From Psilocybe cubensis (Eukaryota): a DNA stretch of 64,000 bases. This document shows positions 708-29,382 of this stretch, piece by piece (within the stretch, counting starts at the first letter, position 1; each line of letters begins with the position of its first letter). The stretch is taken from the NCBI GenBank assembly GCA_017499595.2, contig CM038999.1:1-64000 (forward strand). Reading direction: 5' to 3'. The notes beneath the pieces are model-generated. The model was given only the letters and a program-made list of their open reading frames with translations, was not told where the DNA came from and did no database searches. Made by a program: the position numbers and the translations under genes.

Positions 708-772
708 AGCCACTGAAGAGTCTATAAAGACGAAAGGGCTGGTTGTTGGGATCCCCCAACAGCCCTCTGGCT
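708..772 (+). ncRNA. Type I hammerhead ribozyme in pLTR (intact)
   Basis: AGCCA-CUGAAGA-G-UCU(AUAA)AGA-C-GAAA-GGGCU...AGCCC-UC^-UGGCU. Core CUGANGA/GAAA/NUH and stems I-III all pair; predicted cut after C767. Confidence 0.9.
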
Positions 773-877
773 TCTTTCCATTTTAACTCCCAGTTTAAAC
801 TAGTCGCTCGCACCTCGCTTCGCTCGGTGCTCGCTCCCCCCTAAACCCAACGACTTTGCTATCACCCATCAGCCACT

Positions 878-3800
878 ATGTCATCCCAATATTCTGCTGC
901 TTTCTCTCGTGCCATGTCCCCCTCCCTGGACGCACTCACCCAGGCCGTCGTCAACAACACCGTCTTCGGCGTCAACGATGAAGCAGGCCGCCAAAACGCT
1001 CTCATCGACGAGCTGGCCACTGTGGTCATCAAGAAAATAGCTGAGTGCCGCTCCGTTGATCAAATAATAGACTGCGTCTTTTTTGACTATCGCGCTGCCC
1101 TTAGGGAGTTTCTCCTCAACCTCGCATCGTGGTGCGACAAGAGGGAAACAGTCAGGGCTAGCCTTGAGCGCCTTGAACTTGCCGTTAGCGCAGGGCAGCA
1201 CCCCCAATCGCCTTAAGGTGAAGGCTCCCGAGTTCCAACTCACGAAGGAATTCGCGGATGCCGGGTCAGCGGAGGCTCTTCGAGTCTCTACTACGTTCTC
1301 CACCGCTCGTGACGTCTCTTCCAAAAGGCGATTAACGACGGCGCCATTCAGGCGAAAAAGGACGAACTGGCCTTTTGGGAGGATAAATGCGCACTCGCTT
1401 CTTGCTATGAAGCTGCTGCGGTCATCGTTAAGACAACTTACGAAGACCGCAAGTCCAGCTATAAGCTCCCCGTTTTCTCTACAGACAACAAGGGAGTTCG
1501 TCGCATAGCAGAGTGGGTAACGTCGCCGCAAAAGAAAGCCGAGTGCAGTGCGCTGCAAACTATACTGCCGGCTATCTTTTCTCATATCAAACAAATTGTC
1601 AAATTGCGCCACCGCGCTTTGGCAATTAAGATTGAGAAAAAGCGGTCGACCGCGGCTACAGCCGATGTCGAGATGGCCGACGCGACCAAACCAGGTCCGT
1701 CGATTCAATCCCTTATTGATAAGGGCTTGAATGCACGTCTTAAGAAGCTCAACCTTGGATATGTGGGCAAGAAGGCAGGTTTTCGTAACCCTTCACCCAT
1801 AACTTTGGATACTAATTATTATTCTAATTACCCAGACTTCGTCTGGCCAGAGTTCGTCCAAGGCTCCTCAACCTCAGGCCAAGAAAACTGGCCCTTCGAA
1901 ACCCAAGTCGTCGTCGACGCCTTCGCAACGCAAGCCTCAAACCAAGGCTTCCAACAAGGTCGACAACAAGAAGAAAGGGAAGGGGAGAGCTCCCGTCAAG
2001 AACAACAATCCAAAGGGAAAGGGAAAGGCAAGAGCCTAAACACGCGGTCTAATGTAGTACCTTTTACGTCGGTAAGACCCGCTTTCCCCAACTCTATTCC
2101 TGACGATATACTCACCATGACTAAAACAGACGCAGTTTCATTTGTACACCTCAATACCCCAATTTCTTTCTTATTGGCTGGCCAGTATAGATCTAGTGTA
2201 CATTGTAGTCCTGGTGTTGTAGTTCCGGTTGATGTAGCAAACGACTTATCTCTCGGTTTAAATTATATGTTTTTCACACTGCCTTCTCAAAGTCTGATCA
2301 TGCAAGCATGGAATGATTTTCAACGAAGAATAAGATGGCGTATCTATTTTTTGTTTAAAGAAGGCATGAATAAACCTTTTGATCCAGATTATGGAGTAAG
2401 TTCTAAGAAAAAAGAAAAACCTCCTGTATTACCGCAATTTATGGAACTTGGCCTTTCAATGGGACGTCGGTACGTTATTAAAACGATCGCAAGTATCCCG
2501 GAAGAAGCCCTCAAGGAGATGCGAAAGCACGCGTTCTCTCCTAAAAGGGACAAGATCCAAAAGTTTCTTATCGATAACAACTATGTTATTACGATGACAG
2601 ATAAGAATCTTGGCCTCGCGGTGTCTGAACGCGACTGGATATTAAGGAATGAGCTCAATCTTCTTGAAGATGAACGTAATTACGAAGAGCTAGAATTCGA
2701 AGTTGCGCAAGAAGTAATGAAGAGCAAAATGATCCAGATGCAAACTCTTGCACGTACCGTCGAAGATGAACATCTGTTTCTATTTGAACTTGGGTTGTCT
2801 CGATTCTTTCTATCGAATGTACCGGAAGACGGATCATCGTTCAAGTATCCTCAATTTCATGGTATACCTAAAATCCACAAAAAACCTACTGGATTTAGGC
2901 CCATAATTCCGTGTCACTCTGTAGTATTTAATCCTGCAGCCAAGTTTGTATCAAAAGAGCTTAAGCCGATTATTAAATCGACTCCTTCAATCATTCACGG
3001 AACGAAGGATCTCTTTACGAGATTAAGCCAATTGCGTATAGACCCCCAAACGACAATGGTATTTTGTCACCGGGGATGTAGTTGCTTTCTATCCCAATAT
3101 TCCGTTGGACTTGTGCATCGAAATCGTTTGTAATATGTACGAGGAATGGTTACTCAACGCTTCGGAAGAAAACACTGCATTAGCCCATATTAATCCAAAT
3201 TCGTTAGAGAATAACTTGGTTAAATTGGGCATCTTTAAACGTGCTATCGAGATTGGCAATACGCAATTGATAACACAACATGGGTCTAGATATTTTAGAC
3301 AAAAAAAATGGCCTCGCAATGGGCGTCGCGGATTCTCCGGACCTTGCTAACCTCTTTGGAGCCCATTTTGAAATAAAGTCAAAAATCTTAAACCACCCAA
3401 ACGTGGCCTTCTATGGAAGGTACATCGACGATTGTTTCGCAATTGTTTACGCCGAGTCCGAAGCACTTGCACTTAATCTTATTAAAGAAACAATAAAGTT
3501 CGATGGTTGTGTTATCGAATGGGCTGTTTCCTCGTCGGGATGTCAATTTCTCGATGCTTTCATATTCAAGGAGTCTGGAAAACTTCATTGGAAGCCATTT
3601 GTCAAGACAGGAAACAACCGAGAACGAGTTCCATGGGTATCACATCATCCTTTTGGACGTCAAACGTGGCGTCTACATTGGAGAGTTATCCAGGTTAGCC
3701 GTGCTATGTAGTACCAAGGAAATCTACATCGGAGCAATTAGAGACCTTAACGCTCTCTATTTGATGCGCGGTTATCCCGAAAACCTAGTCATGTCTTGGT

Positions 3801-4417
3801 GTAAGAAGAATATACAAGAACGTTGGGAAAAGCGATTCGCTTTACGAGTCGCAGAGCACGACGAATCCATTCTTGTACTTAAAACCAGATTTGATCAGGT
3901 ATGGAATTGGTTTTCAGCTGCTGAACTTGGAAAGACTGTTACCGAGTACTGGTCGGCATGGTATGAACATGCCGAGAAAGGTCTGTATAGTGCAGACTCG
4001 TCCAGACCCCTTATCAAACCAGATCCAAATTACGTTCACGACCTCGATGATGTTCGCCCGGAGCTGTTCACACAGATCCTCGTGGACGGAGAAACTGAGT
4101 TCGTACCGGATTTGAGGAAGATAGGACTACTCGGAAGTCGTTGGATAGTATCGCGAAAGCGCAATACTAATCTTTTCGACCTTGCAAATGTGTGGAAGAA
4201 AACAGTCTTTCGTAAACTGGATGAAAACATCGCTGAAAAAGGTGGTGTTGTTCCCGAAACTCAAAACGTTAATGAAACTTATCATTCTGCTCTAGTTGAA
4301 GCTGCTGAACAGATAAGTATCGAAAGTGATAACGAGATAATACTTCATAGACGTTCAACCTCACAAGAGAGGGAACATCCAGAATTCGGCAGAATATCCA
4401 AATCTTACAACCGATGA
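878..4417 (+). pseudogene. RT polyprotein of unit 1, split by several small insertions (real decay or read errors)
   Basis: Near-identical to the intact 1176-aa copies but broken into ORFs 878-1216, 1604-3133, 3280-3711 and 3503-4417. Insertions fall mostly in homopolymers. Confidence 0.75.
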
Positions 4418-5128
4418 AAAGAATACTAGCGCGTAAGGCGTAAAGCATTAGAAAAAAAACCCTAACCGTAAGTATTCCTTGCTATAAAGTAACAAACATC
4501 TACTTACAAGCAACACTTTGGATTAAATAGCTAAACCTAAACCCTAAACCCTAAACCCTAAACCCTAACCTAACCCCAACCCTAAGCTAACTAAGTCTAA
4601 CCTTAGTAGGAAGTAAGGTAGGCGTGTGAACTTCCGAACGGCATGTGATTGTGAAGGGCCGGATCTAATTTAGTACATGGGAAAAGTTACTTAGTACTTC
4701 TGGAAAAGTTCCTTAGTACCGTGGAAACATTTTTGATGGACCGGATCATGAACTGTCCAATTAAGATTCACAACAATCAATCATTCTATTGTTTGATTGT
4801 TAGGTAAGGACCCAGGTAAGCTATTTATACTCTAGACATGTGAATATTCCCATGTCGCGGTTACTCGGAGCCACGTAACCAGAGTAATCTATATCCATGT
4901 GATTCACATCACAGTCAATAACCCACGATGTCAAAGAACAAAAGTGTTGGATCCACTTTTGACAGGTTACCATGTGCCACATCGACCCGTGACACTCTGT
5001 TCATCAGAGACCTGTCTAACTTGACAATAAACATTGACAGATTTGTGATAGTCGGTAAGATACATGACAGCTGCGCAGCATCACTTCACGCGCTGTCATC
5101 GGATGTCTAGAACATTCCTTCTAAGAAT

Positions 5129-5193
5129 AGCCACTGAAGAGTCTATAAAGACGAAAGGGCTGGTTGTTGGGATCCCCCAACAGCCCTCTGGCT
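5129..5193 (+). ncRNA. Hammerhead ribozyme (intact), 3' pLTR of unit 1
   Basis: Same motif as 708-772. Confidence 0.9.
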
Positions 5194-5275
5194 TCTTTCC
5201 ATTTTAACTCCCAGTTTAAACTAGTCGCTCGCACCTCGCTTCGCTCGGTGCTCGCTCCCCCCTAAACCCTAAACC

Positions 5276-5349
5276 CTACTTTCCATTTAACTCCCAGTTT
5301 AAACTAGTCGCTCGCACCTCGCTTCGCTCGGTGCTCGCTCCCCCCCTAA
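5276..5349 (+). mobile_element. 74-bp extremely 5'-truncated retroelement fragment
   Basis: Matches the pLTR terminal segment CTACTTTCCATTT...GCTCCCCCCCTAA of the unit-5 haplotype (23290 onward); telomeric repeats cap its left side. Confidence 0.85.
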
Positions 5350-5944: not shown

Positions 5945-6873
5945 CAAGTACTCGTCCTCTCCCAAACTCCTGCCGCTTGTGCCTTCCCAACTCATCCGGG
6001 AGCCCTTTCGTCACTGATCTTGCCCTTGACTCGGGGACGTTTCATCGACATGTTGGCTGCCTCACGGCAAGCGGGGCCCTTTTTCTTTCACTCGCTCACG
6101 CCTTCTATGTTGGGTTACGGAGGTCATACAAACTCGTTTTAGTCTAGCTGCGGGGTTATCCAGCTATGATGACTTTGTAATTCGAGGGCGCGCAGTTCTT
6201 CAATGGGTATGGACATCAGGTGAGAGTACACTGGGGGTTGTCAGGACCAGCTCTGCTGGATACGCTCCTGGCAAGTCGGTTGCAGCCGGCGACACTACCG
6301 AATTGCTGGGACGTCCTAAAGCTTGTGGGTACCGCCGACCGCTGGAAACAGCCTAGGCACCGGTGGCGACCGGGTATGGTAACAATCCCCAAGATTCAGC
6401 GAAAGCTGGAATGGATAATCAGCAGCGAATCCGTAACGGTCACGCCGACGGAAGCGTTCAACGACTAGGTGGTAGTGGGGTCTTCGGATCTTAAGATATA
6501 GTCTTGGGAGTGGGGAAACCCACATCTGGTATCTAAACCGCGCCTCGCTGCTTACGAGGACGGCCCGAAGTCCAGAACCGCTTAAAACGCGGGTGACCCG
6601 GCCTCCCCTTAGTAAAGGGAGTTAACACAAGGATGGACAAATAGTTCGTCGCCGGAAATGAACCTGTGGCTGTAATGGCTGATGTGGCGCCCCTTGGTAA
6701 AGGGCTTAAAGGGTATTAGCCTGCCATGTCCAATGGCATGAGAGTGTCCCTTGGTAAAGGACTTAATAGGCAATAGCCTGCTCTTTTGTCATGAGCGGTA
6801 TGTAGTGATCGTTTGCCTGTACGGTAGCGCCCATTGCTTGCACTGGTCCACGCCCGTAAAAAATCACGAGCCG
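5945..6873 (+). ncRNA. Group I self-splicing intron (IC1-like, 929 nt, no homing endonuclease ORF) inserted in the hammerhead cleavage triplet
   Basis: Exact insertion relative to empty pLTRs (CAGCCCT|CTGGC): the exon ends in U and the intron ends in G. P AATTGCTGGG 6301; Q AATCAGCAG 6417; R GTTCAACGACTA 6456; S AAGATATAGTC 6493; P3 CACTACC 6293 / GGTAGTG 6471; P9 GAAA-loop hairpin 6510-6523. IGS GGGGTTGT 6234-6241 pairs with exon ACAGCCCT, with U.G at the splice site. Confidence 0.92.
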
Positions 6874-6985: not shown

Positions 6986-9900
6986 ATGTCTTCCACTTAC
7001 TCTGCTGCCTTCTCTCGTGCCATGTCCCCCACCCTGGACGCACTCACCCAGGCTGTCGTCAACAACACAGTTTTTGGCGTCAACGACGAAGCTGGCCGCC
7101 ACAACGCCCTCATCGACGAGTTGGCCACTGTCGTCATCAAGAAAATAGCTGAGTGCCGCTCCATTGACCAGATTGTAGACTGCGTCTTTTTTGACTATCG
7201 TGCTGCCCTTAGGGAGTTTCTCCTCAACCTCGCATCGTGGTGCGATAAGAGGGAAACAGTCAAGGCTAGCCTCGAGCGCCTTGAACTTGCCGTTAGCGCA
7301 GGCAACACCCCCAATCGCCTTCGGGTGAAGGCTCCCGAGTTCCAACTTACGAAGGAATTCGCGGATGCCGGGTCAGCGGAAGCTCTTCGAGTTTCCTCTA
7401 CGTTCTCCACCGCTCGTGATGTCTTCCAAAAGGCAATCAACGACGGCGCCATTCAGGCGAAAAAGGACGAACTGGCCTTTTGGGATGATAAATGCGCACT
7501 CAATAACTGTTATGAAGCTGCTGCCCTCATCGTTAAGACAACTTACGATGATCGCAAATCCAGCTATAAGCTCCCCGTTTTCTCTACAGACAACAAGGGA
7601 GTTCGTCGAATAACAGATTGGGTAGTGTCACCGCAGAAGAAGGCTGAATGCAGCGCATTGCAAACCATTTTGCCAGCCATCTTCTCTCATATCAAACAGA
7701 TTGTCAACTTGCGCCACCGCGCTTTGGCAATCAAGATTGAGAAAAAGCGGTCGACTGCGGCAACAGCCGATGTCGAGATGGCCGATGCGACCAAACCAGG
7801 TCCATCGATTCAATCCCTTATTGATAAGGGCTTGAATGCACGTCTCAAGAAGCTCAACCTTGGATCTGTGGGCAAGAAGGCAAGTTCTCGTAACCCTTCA
7901 CCCATAATTCTGGATACTAATTACTATTCTAATTACCCAGACTTTGTCTGGCCAGAATTCGTCCAAGGCTCCTCAACCTCAGGCCAAGAAAGCTGGCCCT
8001 TCGAAATTCAAACCCTCGTCGACGCCTTCGCAGAAGAAGCCCCTAACCAAGGCTTCCAACAAGGTCGACAACAAGAAGAAAGGGAAGGGGAGAGCTCCCG
8101 TCAAGAACGATCCAAAGGGAAAGGGAAAGGCAAGAGCCTAGACGCGCGGTCTAATGTAGTACCTTTTACGTCGGTAAGACCCGCCTTCCCCAACTCTATT
8201 CCTGACGATATACTCACCATGACTAAAACAGACGCAGTTTCTTTTGTACACTTACATACGCCGATCTCATTCTTGTTGGCTGGCCAGTATCGTAGTAGTG
8301 TACACTGTAGTCCTGGTGTGGTGGTCCCTGTAGATATAGCAAATGATTTATCACTCGGACTCAATTATATGTTTTTTACTCTACCTTCTCAAAGTCTGAT
8401 CATGCAAGCATGGAATGATTTTCAACGAAGAATAAGATGGCGTATCTATTTTTTGTTTAAGGAAGGCATGAACAAACCTTTTGATCCAGATTACGGAGTA
8501 AGCTCAAAAAAGAAAGAGAAACCTCCAGTATTACCGCAATACATGGAACTTGGCCTTTCGATGGGACGTCGGTACGTGCAACGCACGATCGCAAGTATCC
8601 CGGAAGAAGCCCTTACGGAGATGCGAAAGCACGCGTTCTCTCCTAAAAGGGACAAGATCCGTAAGTTTCTTATCGATAACAACTATGTTATTACGATGAC
8701 AGATAAGAATCTTGGCCTCGCGGTGTCTGAACGCGACTGGATATTAAGGAATGAGCTCAATCTTCTTGAAGATGAACGTAACTATGAAGAGTTAGAATTC
8801 GAAGTTGCGCAAGAAGTAATGAAGAGCAAAATGATCCAGATGCAAACTCTTGCACGTACCGTCGAAGATGAACATCTGTTTCTATTTGAACTTGGGTTGT
8901 CTCGATTCTTTCTATCGAATGTACCGGAAGACGGATCATCGTTCAAGTATCCTCAATTTCATGGTATACCTAAAATCCACAAAAAACCTACTGGATTTAG
9001 GCCCATAATTCCGTGTCACTCTGTAGTATTTAATCCTGCAGCCAAGTTTGTATCAAAAGAGCTTAAGCCGATTATTAAATCGACTCCTTCAATCATTCAC
9101 GGAACGAAGGATCTCTTTACGAGATTAAGCCAATTGCGTATAGACCCCAAACGACAATGGTATTTTGTCACCGGGGATGTAGTTGCTTTCTATCCCAATA
9201 TTCCGTTGGACTTGTGCATCGAAATCGTTTGTAATATGTACGAGGAATGGTTACTCAACGCTTCGGAAGAAAACACTGCATTAGCCCATATTAATCCAAA
9301 TTCGTTAGAGAATAACTTGGTTAAATTGGGCATCTTTAAACGTGCTATCGAGATTGGCAATACGCAATTGATAACACAACATGGGTCTAGATATTTTAGA
9401 CAAAAAAATGGCCTCGCAATGGGCGTCGCGGATTCTCCGGACCTTGCTAACCTCTTTGGAGCCCATTTTGAAATAAAGTCAAAAATCTTAGACCACCCAA
9501 ACGTGGCCTTCTATGGAAGGTACATCGACGATTGTTTCGCAATTGTTTACGCCGAGTCCGAAGCACTTGCACTTAATCTTATTAAAGAAACAATAAAGTT
9601 CGATGGTTGTGTTATCGAATGGGCTGTTTCCTCGTCGGGATGTCAATTTCTCGATGCTTTCATATTCAAGGAGTCTGGAAAACTTCATTGGAAGCCATTT
9701 GTCAAGACAGGAAACAACCGAGAACGAGTTCCATGGGTATCACATCATCCTTTGGACGTCAAACGTGGCGTCTACATTGGAGAGTTATCCAGGTTAGCCG
9801 TGCTATGTAGTACCAAGGAAATCTACATCGGAGCAATTAGAGACCTTAACGCTCTCTATTTGATGCGCGGTTATCCCGAAAACCTAGTCATGTCTTGGTG

Positions 9901-10516
9901 TAAGAAGAATATACAAGAACGTTGGGAAAAGCGATTCGCTTTACGAGTCGCAGAGCACGACGAATCCATTCTTGTACTTAAAACCAGATTTGATCAGGTA
10001 TGGAATTGGTTTTCAGCTGCTGAACTTGGAAAAACTGTTACCGAGTACTGGTCGGCATGGTATGAACATGCCGAGAAAGGTTTGTATAGTGCAGACTCGT
10101 CCAGACCCCTTATCAAACCAGATCCAAATTACGTTCACGACCTCGATGATGTTCGCCCGGAGCTGTTCACACAGATCCTCGTGGACGGAGAAACTGAGTT
10201 CGTACCGGATTTGAGGAAGATAGGACTACTCGGAAGTCGTTGGATAGTATCGCGAAAACGCAATACTAATCTTTTCGACCTTGCAAATGTGTGGAAGAAA
10301 ACAGTCTTTCGTAAACTGGATGAAGACATCGCTGAAAAAGGTGGTGTTGTTCCCGAAACTCAAAACGTTAATGAAACTTATCATTCTGCTTTAGTTGAAG
10401 CTGCTGAACAGATAAGTATCGAAAGTGATAACGAGATAATACTTCATAGACGTTCAATCTCACAAGAGAGGGAACATCCAGAATTCGGCAGAATATCCAA
10501 ATCTTACAACCGATGA
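6986..10516 (+). CDS. Penelope-like RT polyprotein, 1176 aa; no GIY-YIG endonuclease recognisable
   Basis: RT motifs IPKIHK..FRPII, FVTGDVVAFYPNI, QKNGLAMG, GRYIDD, FLD; PLE-type thumb region (SHHP..VKRG..GELSR). Confidence 0.95.
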   Translation: MSSTYSAAFSRAMSPTLDALTQAVVNNTVFGVNDEAGRHNALIDELATVVIKKIAECRSIDQIVDCVFFDYRAALREFLLNLASWCDKRETVKASLERLELAVSAGNTPNRLRVKAPEFQLTKEFADAGSAEALRVSSTFSTARDVFQKAINDGAIQAKKDELAFWDDKCALNNCYEAAALIVKTTYDDRKSSYKLPVFSTDNKGVRRITDWVVSPQKKAECSALQTILPAIFSHIKQIVNLRHRALAIKIEKKRSTAATADVEMADATKPGPSIQSLIDKGLNARLKKLNLGSVGKKASSRNPSPIILDTNYYSNYPDFVWPEFVQGSSTSGQESWPFEIQTLVDAFAEEAPNQGFQQGRQQEEREGESSRQERSKGKGKGKSLDARSNVVPFTSVRPAFPNSIPDDILTMTKTDAVSFVHLHTPISFLLAGQYRSSVHCSPGVVVPVDIANDLSLGLNYMFFTLPSQSLIMQAWNDFQRRIRWRIYFLFKEGMNKPFDPDYGVSSKKKEKPPVLPQYMELGLSMGRRYVQRTIASIPEEALTEMRKHAFSPKRDKIRKFLIDNNYVITMTDKNLGLAVSERDWILRNELNLLEDERNYEELEFEVAQEVMKSKMIQMQTLARTVEDEHLFLFELGLSRFFLSNVPEDGSSFKYPQFHGIPKIHKKPTGFRPIIPCHSVVFNPAAKFVSKELKPIIKSTPSIIHGTKDLFTRLSQLRIDPKRQWYFVTGDVVAFYPNIPLDLCIEIVCNMYEEWLLNASEENTALAHINPNSLENNLVKLGIFKRAIEIGNTQLITQHGSRYFRQKNGLAMGVADSPDLANLFGAHFEIKSKILDHPNVAFYGRYIDDCFAIVYAESEALALNLIKETIKFDGCVIEWAVSSSGCQFLDAFIFKESGKLHWKPFVKTGNNRERVPWVSHHPLDVKRGVYIGELSRLAVLCSTKEIYIGAIRDLNALYLMRGYPENLVMSWCKKNIQERWEKRFALRVAEHDESILVLKTRFDQVWNWFSAAELGKTVTEYWSAWYEHAEKGLYSADSSRPLIKPDPNYVHDLDDVRPELFTQILVDGETEFVPDLRKIGLLGSRWIVSRKRNTNLFDLANVWKKTVFRKLDEDIAEKGGVVPETQNVNETYHSALVEAAEQISIESDNEIILHRRSISQEREHPEFGRISKSYNR
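7880..7940 (+). other. Putative 61-nt GC-AG spliceosomal intron inside the RT ORF (present in all six units)
   Basis: AAG|GCAAGT donor, TACTAAT/TTCTAAT branch candidates, CCCAG| acceptor. Removal opens a Lys-rich frame ending at TAG 8141. Confidence 0.65.
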
Positions 10517-16450: not shown

Positions 16451-17198
16451 CTTCTTTCTATTTCAAACTCACAGTTTAAACTAGTCGCTCGCACCTCGCT
16501 TCGCTCGGTGCTCGCTCCCCCCCTAAACCCTAAACCCTAACCCTAAACCTAAACCTAAACCCTAAACCCTAAACCCTAAGCCCTAACCTAACCCCAACCC
16601 TAAGCTAACTAAGTCTAACCTTAGTAGGAAGTAAGGTAGGCGTGTGAACTTCCGAAAGGCATGTGATTGTGAAGGGCCGGATCTAATTTAGTACATGGGA
16701 AAAGTTACTTAGTACCTCGGGAAAAGTTCCTTAGTACCGTGGAAACATTTTTGATGGACCGGATCATGAACTGTCCAATTAAGATTCACAACAATCAATC
16801 AATTGATTGTTAGGTAAGGACCCAGGTAAGCTATTTATACTCTTGACATGAGAATATTCCCATGTCACGGTTACTCGGAGCCACGTAACCAGAGTATTTT
16901 ATATCCATGTGATTCACATCACAGTCAATAACCCACGATGTCAAAGAACAAAAGTGTTGGATCCACTTTTGACAGGTTACCATGTGCCACATCGACCCGT
17001 GACACTCTGTTCATCAGAGATCTGTCTAACTTGACAATAAACATTGACAGATTTGTGATAGTCGGTAAGATACATGACAGCTGCGCAGCATCACTTCACG
17101 CGCTGTCATCGGATGTTCCAGAACATTCCTTCTAAGAATAGCCACTGAAGAGTCTATAAAGACGAAAGGGCTGGCTGCTGATAACAATCAACAGCCCT

Positions 17199-18127
17199 CA
17201 AGTACTCGTCCTCTCCCAAACTCCTGCCGCTTGTGCCTTCCCAACTCATCCGGGAGCCCTTTCGTCACTGATCTTGCCCTTGACTCGGGGACGTTTCATC
17301 GACATGTTGGCTGCCTCACGGCAAGCGGGGCCCTTTTTCTTTCACTCGCTCACGCCTTCTATGTTGGGTTACGGAGGTCATACAAACTCGTTTTAGTCTA
17401 GCTGCGGGGATATCCAGCTATGATGACTTTGTAATTCGAGGGCGCGCAGTTCTTCAATGGGTATGGACATCAGGTGAGAGTACACTGGGGGTTGTCAGGA
17501 CCAGCTCTGCTGGATACGCTCCTGGCAAGTCGGTTGCAGCCGGCGACACTACCGAATTGCTGGGACGTCCTAAAGCTTGTGGGTACCGCCGACCGCTGGA
17601 AACAGCCTAGGCACCGGTGGCGACCGGGTATGGTAACAATCCCCAAGATTCAGCGAAAGCTGGAATGGATAATCAGCAGCGAATCCGTAACGGTCACGCC
17701 GACGGAAGCGTTCAACGACTAGGTGGTAGTGGGGTCTTCGGATCTTAAGATATAGTCTTGGGAGTGGGGAAACCCACATCTGGTATCTAAACCGCGCCTC
17801 GCTGCTTACGAGGACGGCCCGAAGTCCAGAACCGCTTAAAACGCGGGTGACCCGGCCTCCCCTTAGTAAAGGGAGTTAACACAAGGATGGACAAATAGTT
17901 CGTCGCCGGAAATGAACCTGTGGCTGTAATGGCTGATGTGGCGCCCCTTGGTAAAGGGCTTAAAGGGTATTAGCCTGCCATGTCCAATGGCATGAGAGTG
18001 TCCCTTGGTAAAGGACTTAATAGGCAATAGCCTGCTCTTTTGTCATGAGCGGTATGTAGTGATCGTTTGCCTGTACGGTAGCGCCCATTGCTTGCACTGG
18101 TCCACGCCCGTAAAAAATCACGAGCCG
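17199..18127 (+). ncRNA. Group I intron copy 2 (929 nt) in the hammerhead cleavage triplet
   Basis: Near-identical to 5945-6873 with the same junctions. Confidence 0.92.
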
Positions 18128-27709: not shown

Positions 27710-28453
27710 CTTTCCATTTAACTCCCAGTTTAAACTAGTCGCTCGCACCTCGCTTCGCTCGGTGCTCGCTCCCCCCCTAAACCCTAAACCCTAACCCTAA
27801 ACCTAAACCCTAAACCCTAAACCCTAAACCCTAACCTAACCCCAACCCTAAGCTAACTAAGTCTAACCTTAGTAGGAAGTAAGGTAGGCGTGTGAACTTC
27901 CGAACGGCATGTGATTGTGAAGGGCCGGATCTAATTTAGTACATGGGAAAAGTTACTTAGTACTTCGGGAAAAGTTCCTTAGTACCGTGGAAACATTTTT
28001 GATGGACCGGATCATGAACTGTCCAATTAAGATTCACAACAATCAATCATTCTATTGTTTGATTGTTAGGTAAGGACCCAGGTAAGCTATTTATACTCTA
28101 GACATGTGAATATTCCCATGTCGCGGTTACTCGGAGCCACGTAACCAGAGTAATCTATATCCATGTGATTCACATCACAGTCAATAACCCACGATGTCAA
28201 AGAACAAAAGTGTTGGATCCACTTTTGACAGGTTACCATGTGCCACATCGACCCGTGACACTCTGTTCATCAGAGACCTGTCTAACTTGACAATAAACAT
28301 TGACAGATTTGTGATAGTCGGTAAGATACATGACAGCTGCGCAGCATCACTTCACGCGCTGTCATCGGATGTCTAGAACATTCCTTCTAAGAATAGCCAC
28401 TGAAGAGTCTATAAAGACGAAAGGGCTGGTTGTTGGGATCCCCCAACAGCCCT

Positions 28454-29382
28454 CAAGTACTCGTCCTCTCCCAAACTCCTGCCGCTTGTGCCTTCCCAAC
28501 TCATCCGGGAGCCCTTTCGTCACTGATCTTGCCCTTGACTCGGGGACGTTTCATCGACATGTTGGCTGCCTCACGGCAAGCGGGGCCCTTTTTCTTTCAC
28601 TCGCTCACGCCTTCTATGTTGGGTTACGGAGGTCATACAAACTCGTTTTAGTCTAGCTGCGGGGTTATCCAGCTATGATGACTTTGTAATTCGAGGGCGC
28701 GCAGTTCTTCAATGGGTATGGACATCAGGTGAGAGTACACTGGGGGTTGTCAGGACCAGCTCTGCTGGATACGCTCCTGGCAAGTCGGTTGCAGCCGGCG
28801 ACACTACCGAATTGCTGGGACGTCCTAAAGCTTGTGGGTACCGCCGACCGCTGGAAACAGCCTAGGCACCGGTGGCGACCGGGTATGGTAACAATCCCCA
28901 AGATTCAGCGAAAGCTGGAATGGATAATCAGCAGCGAATCCGTAACGGTCACGCCGACGGAAGCGTTCAACGACTAGGTGGTAGTGGGGTCTTCGGATCT
29001 TAAGATATAGTCTTGGGAGTGGGGAAACCCACATCTGGTATCTAAACCGCGCCTCGCTGCTTACGAGGACGGCCCGAAGTCCAGAACCGCTTAAAACGCG
29101 GGTGACCCGGCCTCCCCTTAGTAAAGGGAGTTAACACAAGGATGGACAAATAGTTCGTCGCCGGAAATGAACCTGTGGCTGTAATGGCTGATGTGGCGCC
29201 CCTTGGTAAAGGGCTTAAAGGGTATTAGCCTGCCATGTCCAATGGCATGAGAGTGTCCCTTGGTAAAGGACTTAATAGGCAATAGCCTGCTCTTTTGTCA
29301 TGAGCGGTATGTAGTGATCGTTTGCCTGTACGGTAGCGCCCATTGCTTGCACTGGTCCACGCCCGTAAAAAATCACGAGCCG
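28454..29382 (+). ncRNA. Group I intron copy 3 (929 nt) in the hammerhead cleavage triplet
   Basis: Same sequence and junctions, here in a haplotype-A pLTR. Confidence 0.92.

Follow-up and report, generated by a model that had tools for sequence, protein, structure and literature searches.

Endonuclease-deficient Penelope-like elements (PLEs), represented by Coprina and Athena/Terminon, lie in head-to-tail arrays at telomeres and have an open reading frame (ORF) that encodes a reverse transcriptase (RT) only (PMC8557442, PMC6431247, PMC13159263). Their 3' ends carry a hammerhead ribozyme motif followed by reverse-complement telomeric repeats, and their 5' truncations are capped by telomere (PMC6431247, PMC8557442). 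Here, we describe an array apparently of this kind at the left chromosome end of Psilocybe cubensis, within a stretch of 64,000 nucleotides (contig CM038999.1 of assembly GCA_017499595.2, positions 1 to 64,000; hereafter the window), and compare it with the other arrays of the same genome. Behind a (CCCTAAA)n telomere, the window holds six full units, each consisting of an ORF between two pseudo-long terminal repeats (pLTRs), together with two truncated units and one tiny one, and the array stops at ~35.7 kb. The two pLTRs of a unit very probably derive from one pLTR copy that was read twice, and the first and later readings differ in the introns that they contain.

Several described systems bear on how such units arise. 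A proposal made for PLEs in 2014 has hammerhead-cut ends ligate to form a circle that templates more-than-unit copying, and the hammerhead of a fungal PLE cleaves as a monomer (PMC4209133); in the accessible text the proposal is tentative and comes with no in vivo evidence, and passes differ in the present element, unlike the prediction of a static circle. For the Anolis element Poseidon PAc, reverse transcription in vitro starts, as it would here, inside the RNA past the cut, at the position of the genomic 3' end, and cleavage is dispensable (Frangieh 2024, PMC11167929). According to the accessible part of that paper, PAc carries an endonuclease and its start site lacks homology to the target, whereas in the present element complementarity to the telomere would prime synthesis. 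Retrozymes are likewise hammerhead-delimited monomers copied more than once (PMC7761336, bioRxiv 10.64898/2026.07.22.740005). They are characterized as small, non-autonomous and protein-less, and circles of them have been detected, whereas the present element encodes an RT and is known here from its DNA. Long terminal repeat (LTR) retrotransposons reset both terminal repeats to identity in every cycle, and the terminal repeats of a unit are nearly always identical here as well; neither an integrase nor tRNA priming is evident, and the primer would be the chromosome end.

In the accessible parts of the relevant literature, how PLEs replicate, what their hammerheads do and why they retain introns are all termed unresolved (PMC8557442, PMC7761336, PMC3846280). 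The layout of the element and the idea of a circle are already in print, and what is new is the copy-level evidence from 208 units of one genome. As far as their accessible text extends, the accounts of Coprina and Athena/Terminon contain neither a copy-level test of pLTR origin nor pass-dependent splicing, and literature searches, whose reach ended short of subscription papers and supplements, returned no prior report of pass-dependent RNA processing. With hundreds of recent insertions, many haplotypes and three introns that intrinsically mark a reading as first or later, the question of a circle or a precursor becomes testable.

The origin of the two terminal repeats

Unit 1 lies next to the terminal telomere (2-156), which blends into the remnant of an internal tract; all window features given here are on the forward (+) strand. 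Its 5' pLTR (161-848) and 3' pLTR (4582-5269) flank the ORF region (878-4417) and show 0 differences. Because new DNA joins at the chromosome end, the 3' pLTR should be the first-made and the 5' pLTR the second-made. The 5' ends of the units face the chromosome end, with telomeric repeats as a cap, and each pLTR combines a hammerhead with an adjacent reverse-complement telomeric repeat; the window contains CCCTAAACCC 93 times, compared with 0.12 expected.

The hammerhead core CTGAAGAG is found at 713 and 5134, where stems I-III close round a CUC triplet (motifs at 708-772 and 5129-5193), and a core with three stems is present in every pLTR of the window. The CUGANGA/GAAA core, the three stems and the NUH triplet are those of a type I hammerhead; the sequence of stem III varies among haplotypes with its pairing kept, and four copies free of the intron described below gave fold z values of -2.3 to -3.4. 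In Rfam, RAGATH-1-hammerhead scored 29.1 bits (E 0.0027) against a gathering threshold of 56.3, no hammerhead reaching gathering in the window. Self-cleavage is predicted at 767/768 and 5188/5189, which would delimit a cut-to-cut monomer of 4421 nt (768-5188).

An earlier note on this stretch had placed the 3' junctions about 70-80 nt past the cut, had the same sequence continue into the ORF in 5' pLTRs, and had drawn from this a ~4.4-kb monomer with its telomere-annealing site near the 5' end, a geometry that measurement bears out. CCCTAAACC starts 72-75 nt past the cut in 14/14 hammerhead-bearing pLTR copies of the window, a 929-nt insert being left out of the distance. After this putative priming site, which is complementary to the telomere, the 5' copies run on as CCCAACGAC into the ORF (6/6; 836-848 in unit 1, continuing into the ORF leader), whereas the 3' copies run into telomeric repeats (5257-5269 in unit 1, which would be the priming point on an older chromosome end).

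The hairpin motif of the 3' end is present in 401 copies in the genome, 129 of them followed by the ORF start. We fetched 99 stretches and parsed 345 of the 401 motif copies into 222 units, having first set aside two contig ends without the element and an array that duplicates another in inverted orientation. Most counts below use 208 units, a further 14, on contigs C18 and C19, having been dropped as repeats of other arrays. Redundant bodies account for 15 of the 208, some blocks being duplicated between chromosome ends, and 193 are distinct; there are 74 ORF haplotypes in 17 clusters, and four of the 208 units have three pLTRs. We refer to 3', first-made pLTRs as end-type and to later-made ones as ORF-type. 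In the fetched arrays, all 208 of 208 3' junctions depart from the template at or before TAAACCC. CCCACCC is found at 11 3' junctions, and in the five that have a 5' copy, that copy reads CCCCCCC, a pattern that would fit a primer mismatch at that spot.

Within units 1-6 of the window, the 5' and 3' pLTRs differ at 0, 0, 0, 0, 1 and 0 positions, whereas neighbouring pLTRs ~750 bp apart have 27-29 pre-cut changes in four of the five pairs. Across the arrays, the two ends of a unit agree fully in the post-cut part in 58/63 intron-less and 49/49 intron-bearing cases (chance 0.24), and in the pre-cut part in 51/63 and 34/40, respectively (chance 0.10); the remaining cases trace to single changes, to occasional chimeras and, at truncated ends, to some noise in the alignment. 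Both ends of single units also carry the same rare, private variants (e.g. a14, a19 and a23-a28). The two ORFs of the three-pLTR unit u143 are identical, and those of u43, whose haplotype is unique to it, differ at three clustered sites beside a removed intron. Since the pLTRs of a unit nearly always match, private variants included, while neighbours differ, we are confident that both come from one pLTR copy read twice, as judged from the genomic sequence.

Introns in first and later passes

The 929-nt insert is a group I intron (RF00028, 70.9-73 bits), with a 5' exon that ends in U and a terminal G. It lies in the 5' hammerhead of unit 2 (5945-6873), between U16 and C17, where it comes between the cut site and the 3' strand of stem I, and in the 5' pLTRs of unit 4 (17199-18127) and of unit 6 (28454-29382), the last belonging to another host haplotype. 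It is confined to later-made DNA, being present in 0 of 222 end-type pLTRs and 53 of 123 ORF-type pLTRs (0/193 versus 47/103 with identical units collapsed), and telomere repeats follow 0 of its 55 ends genome-wide. The intron is nearly invariant over divergent hosts, and its rare variants occur in different hosts. On the ORF tree, its presence requires 34 changes, compared with a shuffle mean of 39 (p 0.066, n=113); the state is barely inherited and is near random on the tree, which does not favour the suggestion in the earlier note that the intron controls which template form is made. Units that bear it make up 15 of the 24 most distal units of arrays versus 6 of the 24 most proximal.

Ectopic copies of the group I intron have the same boundaries as those in the hammerhead, and for P1/P10 three sequences of 5-8 bp are candidate guides, the analysis singling out none. 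Haplotype-diagnostic sites flank it 11 nt upstream and 5-36 nt downstream. Ectopic copies occur at CCCT-type sites in the 3' untranslated region and in a telomeric tract (right end of C2 near 4330101; C6 near 7870-8290); both are in later-pass DNA, and the copy in the telomeric tract is 5'-truncated. These copies set the ends of the insert at C...G, and on that ground a spliceosomal intron, and an RNA ligated exactly at the cut, were rejected as its identity. A head-to-tail dimer in which the first C directly follows the terminal G (right end of C9 near 3106873-3108742, repeated on C18) would reflect either a full-length intron circle or repeated reverse splicing. The spread of the intron would be consistent with reverse splicing or with intron circles of full length, which are treated in a 2013 review, the accessible part of which regards full evidence for reverse splicing, reverse transcription and integration as lacking for ribosomal DNA introns (PMC3679873); the arrays described here may capture all three steps. 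Near the 5' end of the intron, 11 nt (6004-6014) are complementary to GACGAAAGGGC of the host hammerhead, and this pairing could hold the ribozyme unfolded.

Two GT-AG introns provide further markers. One of 63 nt (4468-4530) lies just before an internal telomere-like tract (4531-4577) that is the usual end of second passes, and all 20 of its spliced junctions, including those at the 5' ends of unit 4 (16535-16555) and unit 6 (27789-27809), lie upstream of ORF-type pLTRs, compared with 219 unspliced donors. Five of the 20 retain more upstream exon than the others. In the fetched loci, the spliced junction is followed by the full tract 18 times versus 8 for a perfect repeat; elsewhere, its variant repeat occurs 17 times versus roughly a thousand perfect repeats (a rough sum). 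The place of the intron is kept in the relative L100 (62% identity), the single locus from a metagenome scan on which this conservation rests, where a 55-nt GT-AG intron lies at the matching place and a telomere-like site 86 nt past a degenerate hammerhead. Upstream of that related element are long, degenerate repeats in tandem, roughly 170-180 nt in size (L100, 330-3200). The other intron, of 54 nt and in frame (4242-4295), is spliced in three places versus 181 unspliced donors. All three are distal to a later-pass tract, with ends 8-13 nt beyond the junction, and the pieces show 0 substitutions relative to the first pass of their own unit (chance 0.14 each).

In sum of these counts, the first pass reads RNA that lacks the group I intron and keeps its GT-AG introns, and later passes read the same haplotype, often spliced and invaded. 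The passes also end differently: stops at the internal tract number 13/180 in the first pass (one row being a parsing artefact) versus 77/89 in later ones. Seven short first-pass units stop 1-11 nt past the cut, and the only other short unit that ends 3' of the cut is a fragment at a contig start. The neighbours of the seven comprise two ORF-truncated units, two truncated pLTRs and two full units, with no neighbour parsed for the last, and because they differ in type, read-through from a neighbour was rejected as the origin of the seven. Their ends would fit either a nick or pausing at stem III. The post-cut segment folds no better than its shuffles (z -0.23). The tiny unit of the window (5276-5349) resembles a strong-stop product, with a 5' end 4 nt past the cut and the same 3' end as the full units.

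A proposed cut monomer and its rivals

The reading that we favour, and to which we give about an even chance, is that one hammerhead-cut monomer, closed or nicked, is read for ~1.15 turns and is spliced and intron-invaded between passes. A read-through transcript would yield the ~4.42-kb cut-to-cut monomer through its two hammerheads, and the monomer ends would be ligated or kept together by stem I. The G-rich 3' end of the chromosome would then prime at CCCCCCUAAACCC, 72-75 nt from the 5' end of the monomer, a position marked by the junctions. The RT would pass over the cut site, copy the pLTR and the ORF, and then copy the same pLTR again, as the single-copy origin seen in the DNA suggests. 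In telomerase, the template RNA is free again behind the enzyme, and here the RNA set free behind the RT would mature before its second reading. Between passes, the spliceosome would excise the 63-nt intron and at times also the 54-nt intron, a timing to which the pass dependence points, and free group I intron would reverse-splice at the U/C junction in ~43% of cases. Synthesis would mostly stop on reaching the second telomeric tract, or within a few nucleotides past the new splice junction, perhaps where the way is blocked, for instance by an exon junction complex or the spliceosome, and telomerase would heal the end.

If this is correct, it provides an account of how telomerase-like elements copy themselves, with both terminal repeats taken from one self-cut stretch of RNA. 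More tentatively, and as a possibility rather than an expectation, splicing of the 63-nt intron between passes may be the turn counter of a telomerase-related RT that re-reads a ribozyme-closed RNA, stops after ~1.15 turns and leaves a longer telomere seed, with the group I intron using the same interval to reverse-splice in almost one cycle out of two. On that view, RNA maturation in the course of reverse transcription would be written into the arrays, which would also account for the introns retained in first-pass copies.

A number of points weigh against the cut monomer. Its support comes from genomic DNA copies, and reverse splicing in ~43% of cycles is a high rate because cellular GTP favours the forward direction. 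The first-pass ends clustered at +1 to +11, seven in all, point to a true 5' end at the cut or else to pausing at stem III. The type of group I intron is partly co-inherited with host clades, and 15 of the 20 spliced 63-nt junctions retain 8 exon nt only and were possibly inherited from the 5' end of a parent. Unit u43 was copied onward past a spliced junction, and splicing is therefore no absolute stop. Switching between RNAs does occur, as the chimeras u15, u32, u207 and u174 show, and two of the three-pLTR units are switches. Finally, the accessible text on Anolis PAc reports that insertion in vitro did not need hammerhead cleavage (PMC11167929).

An alternative that fits almost as well as one monomer is a spliced sister RNA transcribed from the same locus, which we consider plausible but a minority view. 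An unspliced cut monomer would be read first, with an end-to-end jump at the cut; for the second pass, the RT would transfer, via the shared 73-nt post-cut segment, to a capped and spliced sister RNA whose promoter lies close to where the ORF ends. Enrichment of the group I intron in this acceptor would come about because it blocks acceptor cleavage. Defined 5' ends that lie 8-16 nt before splice junctions do resemble transcription starts, the 5'-UTR introns of Penelope and Chlamys-3 overlap promoters in the accessible account (PMC8557442), template switches are on record, and the 0/222 would be explained without a protected junction. What the sister RNA demands is a strict choice of the same locus among more than 100 loci (49/49 post-cut and 34/40 pre-cut matches); in addition, u43 goes on through a whole further ORF beyond the spliced junction, and inheritance of the intron state is barely detectable. 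An uncleaved linear precursor from rare more-than-unit masters, primed at its 3' pLTR, with cap-proximal introns spliced and the 3' junction shielded by the RT, gives the simplest account of why splicing and the group I intron are confined to the 5' side and why copying stops at the tract, and PAc uses unprocessed RNA in vitro (PMC11167929, in its accessible part). We nevertheless regard it as improbable. The 74 ORF haplotypes in 17 clusters contrast with merely four three-pLTR units among 208, single-base differences between 5' and 3' pLTRs are no more frequent in intron-bearing than in intron-less units, and private variants at both ends require a double reading anyway, which makes an uncut linear precursor alone insufficient.

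That precursor was one of two templates allowed by the earlier note, the other being a circle read for more than one turn. The part of this scheme that stands is the double reading of one pLTR copy; a static covalent circle in two forms, of 4.4 and 5.35 kb, read without memory, is very unlikely. It would account for the identity within units and for one clean multimer, u143, but it predicts an equal state in both passes, contradicted by the 0/222 versus 53/123 for the group I intron, by splicing in later passes only and by the 13/180 versus 77/89 stops at the tract. The 5.35-kb form is not supported because its intron would enter both pLTRs. The note had credited the circle to retrozymes, for which more-than-unit copying is indeed known, but it had also been put forward for PLEs themselves, as the accessible text of PMC4209133 attests. 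We give as little credence to homogenization at the DNA level, by gene conversion or unequal exchange, or to an assembly artefact. Blocks are duplicated at chromosome ends (15/208), and other arrays recur on C18, C19 and part of C4, yet the nearer neighbouring pLTRs stay unhomogenized and the asymmetry persists after duplicates are collapsed. DNA exchange is unable to excise GT-AG introns precisely, and it would not shift the group I intron without its flanks, given the diagnostic sites 5-36 nt downstream and 11 nt upstream.

Coding capacity, relatives and stray copies

The ORF of unit 1 is in pieces, from either real damage or a consensus error at the contig end, and units 2-6 each have an ORF of 1187-1188 codons. 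An intact form of 1175 amino acids (6989-10516) gave 0 families in a direct Pfam scan and no match in a search of the PDB; a homologue 100% identical to it across residues 540-1000, assigned by its source to Psilocybe cubensis, carries PF00078, and by this homology the product is an RT. For a GIY-YIG endonuclease, the ORF gave no Pfam match and the 120 homologues listed carry PF00078, PF28514, PF26215 or none, no dedicated profile having been built. On these sequence features, the element is classed as a probable endonuclease-less PLE, Coprina-like. Protein relatives of 63-74% identity (P0005-P0046) lie mostly on contigs of ~3-6 kb, which is near monomer size.

C18, C19 and C4 4127000-4150895 repeat other arrays, namely the right end of C9, part of the left end of C1 and, inverted, a copy on C4, which suggests haplotigs or assembly fold-back. 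One pLTR contains a foreign insertion of several kilobases, with GA-rich repeats at its start (L086-L087, C18 unit 217). Element copies also lie tens to hundreds of kilobases away from contig ends (C1 82764-83005, C4 89837, C7 59474-67161 and 3086883-3092029) and perhaps mark old telomere positions.

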